This document shows, one piece after another, positions 11,972 through 14,271 of a DNA stretch of 64,000 bases. The notes beneath the pieces are model-generated. The model had not been told where the DNA came from. It searched no databases and saw nothing but the letters and a program-made list of their open reading frames with translations. A program made the translations under genes and the position numbers. Numbering within the stretch: position 1 is the stretch's first letter; every line of letters starts with the position of its first letter. The stretch is from Escherichia coli (GTDB taxonomy: Bacteria > Pseudomonadota > Gammaproteobacteria > Enterobacterales > Enterobacteriaceae), in assembly GCF_003334405.1 (NCBI RefSeq), contig NZ_QOWM01000010.1; one strand, given 5' to 3'.

Positions 11972-12086
11972 TCGGTTTTTCGCAACTGTTATGCAAAATT
12001 GTGGTAGATCTGTTACTTCCCCTCTACTATTCCCACGTTAAAATAGGGTGTTCCCTGGAAAGTTGCAGATACCACGAAGGCAAACG

Positions 12087-12557
12087 ATGACCGAAATACA
12101 ACGCCTGCTGACCGAAACGATTGAGTCTCTGAATACCCGCGAAAAACGCGACAACAAACCCCGCTTTAGTATCAGTTTTATCCGTAAACATCCGGGGCTG
12201 TTTATCGGTATGTACGTTGCTTTTTTTGCCACCCTGGCGGTGATGTTGCAGTCCGAAACGCTGTCAGGCTCTGTCTGGCTACTGGTTGTATTATTTATCC
12301 TGCTTAATGGTTTCTTCTTTTTCGATGTCTACCCACGCTACCGCTATGAAGATATCGACGTGCTGGATTTCCGCGTTTGCTATAACGGCGAATGGTACAA
12401 CACGCGCTTTGTACCTGCCGCGCTGGTTGAAGCCATCTTGAACTCTCCGCGTGTCGCGGATGTTCATAAGGAACAACTGCAAAAAATGATCGTCCGTAAA
12501 GGTGAACTGTCTTTTTACGATATTTTTACCCTCGCTCGCGCCGAATCAACATCTTAA
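12087..12557 (+). CDS. ylaC: Inner membrane protein YlaC (DUF1449)
   Basis: ORF 12048..12557; internal start MTEIQRLL gives 156 aa; two hydrophobic helices. Confidence 0.85.
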
Positions 12558-12714
12558 GTTAGGGTTACATACCAGGCGTAAAGCTCTGCGCCTGGTCAAA
12601 TGACAATGATCGTTTCCACCCATCACTTCATGAAATACCAGCTCTACCTCCTTATCTCCAGCCAGCCTTTTTCCACAATCAGATATACTTTCCCTACACT
12701 GTGTTAATAAGGAT

Positions 12715-14271
12715 ATGCTGGTGAGAACACGACATCTGGTCGGCCTTATTTCGGGAGTACTGATTCTTTCAGTATTGCTGCCTGTCGGCTTAAGCATCTG
12801 GCTGGCCCATCAGCAGGTAGAAACATCGTTTATTGAAGAGCTGGATACCTATTCCTCCCGCGTCGCTATTCGAGCCAATAAGGTGGCGACACAAGGGAAA
12901 GATGCGCTGCAGGAGCTGGAAAGATGGCAAGGCGCTGCCTGTAGCGAAGCCCATCTCATGGAAATGCGTCGGGTATCTTACAGTTATCGCTATATTCAGG
13001 AAGTGGCTTATATCGATAACAACGTTCCCCAGTGTTCGTCTCTGGAGCATGAAAGTCCGCCCGATACCTTCCCCGAGCCAGGTAAAATTTCGAAAGATGG
13101 TTATCGTGTCTGGTTAACATCGCATAACGATTTAGGCATTATCCGTTACATGGTCGCCATGGGAACGGCACATTATGTCGTCATGATCGACCCCGCTTCC
13201 TTTATTGATGTCATTCCCTATAGCTCATGGCAAATTGATGCCGCCATTATTGGCAATGCCCATAACGTTGTCATAACCAGCAGCGATGAAATTGCTCAGG
13301 GAATTATTACCAGGCTACAAAAAACACCCGGTGAGCATATCGAAAATAATGGAATCATTTACGATATCCTGCCCTTACCGGAGATGAATATTTCGATCAT
13401 CACATGGGCTTCAACGAAAATGTTGCAGAAAGGCTGGCATCGGCAAGTCTTTATTTGGTTACCGCTCGGGTTGGTGATTGGCCTGCTGGCAGCGATGTTT
13501 GTGCTGCGTATTTTGCGCCGTATTCAGTCACCGCATCATCGGCTGCAGGATGCTATCGAAAATCGTGATATTTGCGTGCACTATCAGCCGATTGTCTCCT
13601 TAGCCAATGGCAAAATTGTCGGTGCTGAGGCACTGGCGCGCTGGCCGCAGACAGACGGTAGTTGGTTGTCACCAGATAGTTTTATTCCGCTGGCACAGCA
13701 AACGGGCCTTTCTGAGCCATTGACGCTACTGATTATAAGAAGCGTCTTTGAAGATATGGGCGACTGGCTGCGTCAGCATCCACAGCAGCATATTTCGATC
13801 AATCTTGAATCCCCCGTGCTCACCTCGGAAAAAATCCCGCAATTGCTGCGTGACATGATCAATCACTATCAGGTTAATCCCAGACAGATCGCGCTTGAAC
13901 TCACTGAACGCGAGTTTGCCGATCCGAAAACCAGCGCCCCGATAATTTCTCGCTACCGGGAGGCGGGCCATGAAATTTATCTTGATGATTTTGGTACGGG
14001 GTATTCAAGTTTAAGTTATTTACAGGATCTGGATGTCGACATTCTGAAGATCGATAAATCTTTCGTTGATGCGCTGGAATATAAAAATGTCACGCCGCAT
14101 ATCATCGAAATGGCAAAAACACTGAAACTGAAAATGGTAGCGGAGGGAATCGAAACCAGTAAACAAGAAGAGTGGTTACGCCAGCATGGCGTGCACTACG
14201 GTCAGGGCTGGCTCTACAGCAAGGCATTACCGAAAGAAGATTTCTTACGCTGGGCCGAGCAACATTTGTGA
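12715..14271 (+). CDS. pdeB: Cyclic-di-GMP phosphodiesterase PdeB (YlaB), CSS-motif sensor plus EAL domain
   Basis: 518-aa ORF with N-terminal TM, periplasmic domain, second TM and C-terminal EAL domain (EALxR ... DDFGTGYSS); the true start may be the GTG at 12721. Confidence 0.9.
   Translation: MLVRTRHLVGLISGVLILSVLLPVGLSIWLAHQQVETSFIEELDTYSSRVAIRANKVATQGKDALQELERWQGAACSEAHLMEMRRVSYSYRYIQEVAYIDNNVPQCSSLEHESPPDTFPEPGKISKDGYRVWLTSHNDLGIIRYMVAMGTAHYVVMIDPASFIDVIPYSSWQIDAAIIGNAHNVVITSSDEIAQGIITRLQKTPGEHIENNGIIYDILPLPEMNISIITWASTKMLQKGWHRQVFIWLPLGLVIGLLAAMFVLRILRRIQSPHHRLQDAIENRDICVHYQPIVSLANGKIVGAEALARWPQTDGSWLSPDSFIPLAQQTGLSEPLTLLIIRSVFEDMGDWLRQHPQQHISINLESPVLTSEKIPQLLRDMINHYQVNPRQIALELTEREFADPKTSAPIISRYREAGHEIYLDDFGTGYSSLSYLQDLDVDILKIDKSFVDALEYKNVTPHIIEMAKTLKLKMVAEGIETSKQEEWLRQHGVHYGQGWLYSKALPKEDFLRWAEQHL

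Follow-up and report, generated by a model that had tools for sequence, protein, structure and literature searches.

Two in-frame codons lying 6 nt apart, ATG 12715 and GTG 12721, could each start the translation of pdeB (ylaB), and the question raised by this locus is which of them the ribosome uses. We addressed it in a 64,000-nt stretch of an Escherichia coli contig (hereafter the window, to which all positions refer), whose pdeB open reading frame spans 12715..14271 on the forward strand and comprises 518 codons, translated MLVRTRHLVGLISGV... There is an in-frame stop 30 codons 5' of ATG 12715, and this codon is the first ATG, GTG or TTG after the stop. An earlier note on this DNA had read the opening of the frame as ATG-CTG-GTG (MLVRTRHLV), exactly as found at 12715-12723, and had considered the start codon ambiguous. 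ATG, the strongest start codon and intrinsically a better one than GTG, also opens the longest ORF here, which favours the alternative of an incorrect reference annotation and a 518-aa PdeB (MLVRTRHLV...) translated from ATG 12715. The features that bear on the choice are collected in Table 1.

Table 1. Features of the pdeB start region and coding sequence in the window
Feature	Coordinates	Strand	Evidence or description
Putative -10 element of the pdeB promoter (GATATACT block)	12682..12689	+	Conservation; TATACT at 12684-12689
Shine-Dalgarno (SD) sequence UAAGGA	12708..12713	+	6-bp duplex with the 16S 3' end ACCUCCUUA, dG -6.0 kcal/mol
In-frame ATG in the SD-to-start spacer, non-initiating	12715..12717	+	1 nt from the SD; absent in relatives
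GTG initiation codon	12721..12723	+	RefSeq starts; DtoStart 13; start codon in 19/19 orthologue sequences
pdeB (ylaB, b0457) coding sequence	12721..14271	+	516 aa plus stop; CSS-domain/EAL c-di-GMP phosphodiesterase

Identity of pdeB and its annotated start

The segment 12560-12900 (341 bp) shows 100% DNA identity to E. coli K-12 and was found in 5425 of 5426 complete E. coli genomes; in the matching genomes it is annotated as pdeB, flanked by ylaC upstream and ybaA downstream, and the order hha-maa-ylaC-pdeB-ybaA is that around K-12 b0457. Proteins of the PdeB group contain an N-terminal TM1, a periplasmic CSS-motif domain, TM2 and a C-terminal EAL domain (PMC5897775), and architecture, identity and synteny together place the window gene in this orthologue group. 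Pfam PF12792 (CSS-motif) and PF00563 (EAL) are recorded for near-identical proteins (99% identity, e.g. P0007), and the EAL region matches NCBIfam c-di-GMP phosphodiesterase models, below cutoff. These below-cutoff EAL-region matches were the only ones in NCBIfam, where we found no PdeB-specific model whose profile start could place the N-terminus. Compared with K-12 pdeB (NP_414990.2), gene, neighbours, GTG start and 516-aa product are the same, with no difference.

The earlier note gave the reference protein as two residues shorter, which would imply a start at GTG 12721, and the RefSeq CDS of 1551 nt and 516 aa agrees with this. In K-12 MG1655 (NC_000913.3) b0457 is located at 477067..478617 of the complement and starts at the equivalent of window 12721, as does the CDS in every RefSeq record that we inspected (the K-12 MG1655 assembly, NC_000913.3, an O157:H7 strain, the divergent strain FDAARGOS_1281, MEW and 3359). 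In strain 3359, pdeB is a frameshifted pseudogene, yet its annotated start is also at the GTG. The 516-aa translation from this codon is an exact match to a deposited PdeB sequence. In an exact-sequence look-up, at least 1000 contigs carried the 516-aa protein, whereas 109 carried the 518-aa form, which persists in a minority of GenBank submissions (e.g. BAJ42297.1 and AFG39352.1). These 109 contigs are a further point for a start at the ATG, and they are also the part of the earlier note's ambiguity that stands: two forms do circulate in the annotations. That the start itself is ambiguous is not sustained by the SD spacing or by the orthologues described below.

A similar start discrepancy affects ylaC, for which the mechanical ORF runs from a GTG at 12048 to 12557 (169 aa) and the RefSeq gene occupies 12087-12557 (156 aa). 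Strain 3359 (L004), with the pseudogene annotation, is a bloodstream isolate, and a cluster of 429-aa partial PdeB from Shigella flexneri (P0016) also exists.

Pairing and spacing of the Shine-Dalgarno sequence

When the 16S 3' end (ACCUCCUUA) was slid along 12685-12721 to score duplexes, UAAGGA was the only site below -3.5 kcal/mol; positions 5' of it gave a dG of -0.3 or higher, and the remaining values below zero, none lower than -3.5 kcal/mol, occurred only inside or 3' of the candidate start codons. No strong SD sequence had seemed obvious for either codon in the earlier note, an impression that is contradicted by this -6.0 kcal/mol duplex at 12708-12713, separated from the GTG by a gap of 7 nt. 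The gap to the ATG is 1 nt.

We expressed these spacings as DtoStart (PMC9841429), the distance from the mRNA base opposite the 16S 3'-terminal nucleotide to the start codon, having checked the definition against the reporters of that paper (UAAGGAGG plus a 2-nt spacer, equal to 10) and against hdhA (AGGAGGU plus 2 nt, equal to 11). DtoStart is 13 for the GTG, which is optimal for E. coli, and 7 for the ATG, with a genome-wide mode of 13-14 (PMC9841429). Considering as canonical an SD-led site with at least 4-6 nt of complementarity to the 16S 3' end and a DtoStart of about 12-15, GTG 12721 is such a site through UAAGGA, and ATG 12715 is not, its DtoStart being 7 and no other site with a dG below -1 lying upstream.

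Experiments with closely spaced start codons bear directly on this arrangement. In the reporters of PMC9841429, at DtoStart 11/13 the 3' GUG was exclusively used, and native hdhA and secF initiate at a GUG and 'hardly' at the nearby AUG; the conclusion of that paper is that a strong SD with a short aligned spacing physically bars the 5' codon from the P site. By analogy, the 1-nt spacing would sterically exclude SD-guided initiation at ATG 12715. An A at +4 also favours GUG recognition (PMC9841429), and the base that follows the pdeB GTG is an A (GUGA).

The gene pdeB was outside the set tested in PMC9841429, but it can be compared with hdhA and secF. As in those genes, the SD puts the annotated GUG at DtoStart 13 and leaves an upstream AUG too near the SD. 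Unlike in pdeB, the two codons of hdhA and secF overlap (AUGUG), are out of frame and stand at DtoStart 11/13, whereas the pdeB AUG is in frame, 6 nt upstream, and at DtoStart 7/13 is worse placed. A mis-start in pdeB would likewise differ in its consequences, adding two residues only and opening no other frame.

Conservation of the start region among orthologues

We compared 19 sequences, consisting of the window, six other Escherichia loci (E. albertii, E. whittamii and cryptic-clade strains) and twelve more distant orthologues (Citrobacter-like, Enterobacter, Leclercia, Lelliottia, Phytobacter and Trabulsiella). The distant ones were obtained by protein search and contig look-up; a contig scan with the PdeB protein alone reached Escherichia only. 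The codon aligned with 12721 is GTG in 14 sequences, ATG in four and TTG in one. Conversely, an ATG at codon -2, the position of ATG 12715, is present only in the window, in five of the six other Escherichia loci and in one close relative (L020), and is missing in 12 of the 19 sequences, among them all 11 orthologue loci counted as outside the genus (L020 being taken as a close relative with the ATG). At codon -2, Escherichia sp. MOD1-EC7003 has ATA, five Citrobacter-like loci have ATC and a sixth has AGC; the region is of unrelated sequence in Enterobacter, Leclercia, Lelliottia, Trabulsiella and Phytobacter.

Codon -1 varies non-synonymously (CTG, TTG, TTC, AAC, TGC, ACT and ATC, for L, F, N, C, T and I), and codons -2 and -1 are free of protein-level constraint. 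Directly after the start, the peptide R/T-T-R-H-L-V is conserved and most of the variation falls on third positions: within codons +2 to +15, the first, second and third codon positions account for 7, 4 and 12 variable columns, respectively. Conservation of the coding type begins right after the GTG. Both marks of a true start in a comparison of this kind, a conserved codon and the onset of constraint, are found at GTG 12721 and not at ATG 12715. Alignment with orthologues was one of the checks named in the earlier note, and it reveals a conserved start codon at the GTG position only. The SD is also maintained, with AAGGA and the 7-nt gap to the start kept in 13 of 14 Escherichia and Citrobacter-like sequences (L013 has TAGAGG). 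Likewise, the gene calls of nearly all of the 120 best database homologues begin at the aligned M-[RTKN]-T-R position; the few that deviate from it are extended or truncated and obviously aberrant.

Several homologues showed peculiarities of their own. Two proteins of 543 aa (P0005 and P0006) carry a foreign N-terminal extension of 26 residues, with the junction ...GAS-LVRTRHLV. The replacement of the ATG codon itself in these calls points to an insertion or rearrangement whose end lies right at the SD/ATG. In three others (P0001-P0003), a small upstream ORF (MTMIVSTHHF..., from window 12601) is fused to pdeB through indels. Additionally, a 510-bp low-coverage contig (L011) from a Firmicute assembly labelled Terrisporobacter petrolearius encodes a fragment 98% identical to E. 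coli PdeB, and almost certainly comes from E. coli DNA contaminating the assembly.

Variation within E. coli

Of the 5426 complete E. coli genomes, 5281 (about 97%) contain an exact match to a 35-mer that includes the ATG. Near fixation is the third point in favour of a start at the ATG, and it is compatible with neutrality in a young species, without being proof of it. One genome, that of E. coli strain MEW, has ATA in place of the ATG, and its pdeB is intact, with an annotated start at the GTG and a product of 516 aa. We found no ACG variant of codon -2 among the complete E. coli genomes, nor the haplotype contexts GGACATG and GGACATA.

Taken together, one Escherichia lineage, strain MEW and the orthologues compared from other genera lack the ATG and yet have a start codon at the GTG position; the SD lies 1 nt from it with no alternative upstream, a short aligned spacing of the kind that excludes the 5' codon in reporter experiments (PMC9841429); and codons -2 and -1 lack protein-level conservation. 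Initiation at ATG 12715 as the sole start, with an erroneous reference annotation, is thus extremely improbable despite the strength of the codon, the length of the ORF, the 109 contigs and its frequency in the species.

The homology of one E. coli strain, FCI56 (L025), to the window ends at 12701/12702, just 5' of the pdeB SD. Beyond the junction, the sequence continues with genes for an IS1A transposase and a site-specific integrase and, after these, with ffs; this locus is thus without pdeB and ybaA and has an IS1A element and an integrase gene in their place.

The leader of pdeB and its surroundings

The GATATACT block is nearly invariant across the Escherichia and Citrobacter-like loci, in a ylaC-pdeB spacer that otherwise drifts, and it looks like a putative -10 element of pdeB. 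A scan of 12300-12900 for sigma-70 promoter and terminator consensus gave no match, so that it is conservation alone that points to a promoter here. Such an element would imply a transcription start site (TSS) near 12696, and hence an mRNA containing both candidate codons, with a leader of 25 nt to the GTG. The gene has been reported as sigma-S dependent and, among the five CSS-domain phosphodiesterases of K-12, as the one with the highest expression (PMC5897775).

In a predicted fold of 12696-12775, the SD region (12706-12712) pairs with CCUUAUU at 12745-12751. We rejected a regulatory hairpin at the SD region, because the fold energy is no better than that of shuffled sequences (z -0.45) and because the downstream arm is unconserved (CTT/CTG/CTA variation).

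Two other observations concern the flanks of the leader. The Cappable-seq data of PMC4782308 include a TSS (score 3.8) at U00096.2 477860, + strand, which corresponds to window 12702, minus strand, assuming an offset of +776 between U00096.2 and NC_000913.3. So placed, it lies 19 nt upstream of the pdeB GTG on the opposite strand and is directed back into ylaC, and it would be the start of a divergent or antisense transcript within the pdeB leader. At 12572-12597, just after the ylaC stop, there is an 8-bp G+C-rich inverted repeat (ACCAGGCG ... CGCCTGGT) without a T-run, which may form a hairpin at the end of the ylaC transcript; the terminator scan reported nothing there.

Initiation at pdeB

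Our results make it very probable that pdeB is translated from GTG 12721-12723 by ordinary SD-guided initiation, and that the ATG is present in the spacer by chance. The 30S subunit would dock on UAAGGA; once the duplex has formed, the P site would come to lie ca. 13 nt 3' of the base pairing with the 16S 3'-terminal nucleotide, that is, on the GTG, and ATG 12715, 1 nt past the SD, would be out of reach of the P site of a ribosome anchored in this way. The product would be a protein of 516 aa beginning fMet-Arg-Thr-Arg-His-Leu-Val... The ATG itself probably arose by chance in the Escherichia lineage from the ATC of its relatives. From base composition, an in-frame ATG within two codons 5' of the true start is expected in about 3% of genes (2 x 1/64), or in about 9% for any of ATG, GTG or TTG, and the coincidence at 12715 is therefore unremarkable. 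Gene callers that favour the longest ORF or an ATG would sometimes choose this codon, and this would be the whole source of the ambiguity. The 518-aa reading reflects no more than the mechanically defined longest ORF, the 518-aa calls are over-extensions and the ambiguity is an annotation artefact only; the GTG start of pdeB was already known and is correctly annotated.

According to PMC7043885, initiation in E. coli can locate start sites without SD pairing, and it is on that account conceivable that the ATG is used at a low level independently of the SD. Most ribosomes would then start at the GTG and a minor fraction at the ATG, giving two forms of PdeB, one of them longer by an N-terminal Met-Leu (with Val where the other has fMet) on the cytoplasmic side of TM1. 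Both codons should be part of the mRNA provided that transcription starts near 12696, the weak predicted local structure does not obviously occlude the ATG, and ambiguous starts at close codons are documented in E. coli, as in pqiA at DtoStart 12/14 (PMC9841429). That ambiguity, however, occurs at 12/14 and not at 7/13, the 5' codon being already silent at 10-11, and neither the ATG nor the two extra residues are conserved, for which reason any isoform from the ATG would be without selected function. We thus consider dual initiation very unlikely. The related proposal that the spacer AUG has an effect, by giving a low-level SD-independent minor isoform with two more residues or by acting as a decoy that lowers initiation at the GUG, is highly unlikely; were the decoy real, the AUG would tune down the initiation of PdeB, a low-abundance signalling enzyme.

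The gene has no entry, as pdeB, ylaB or b0457, in the supplements of the TRAINSPOTTER N-terminomics, TetRP and ribosome-signature TIS studies. Tryptic N-terminomics is ill suited to PdeB, because the N-terminal tryptic peptide would be as short as MR or MLVR and the next fragment would span TM1.

Implications for PdeB

The significance of these results is limited to annotation hygiene, the correct N-terminus of PdeB being fMet-Arg-Thr-Arg in a protein of 516 aa. Expression constructs and N-terminal tags for pdeB should be designed from the GTG, keeping UAAGGA and the 7-nt spacer. The pdeB case also illustrates that SD spacing and orthologue DNA settle the choice between close start codons without experiments. 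For the enzyme itself, the two extra residues would lie on the short cytoplasmic tail before TM1, and no functional change would be expected from them.
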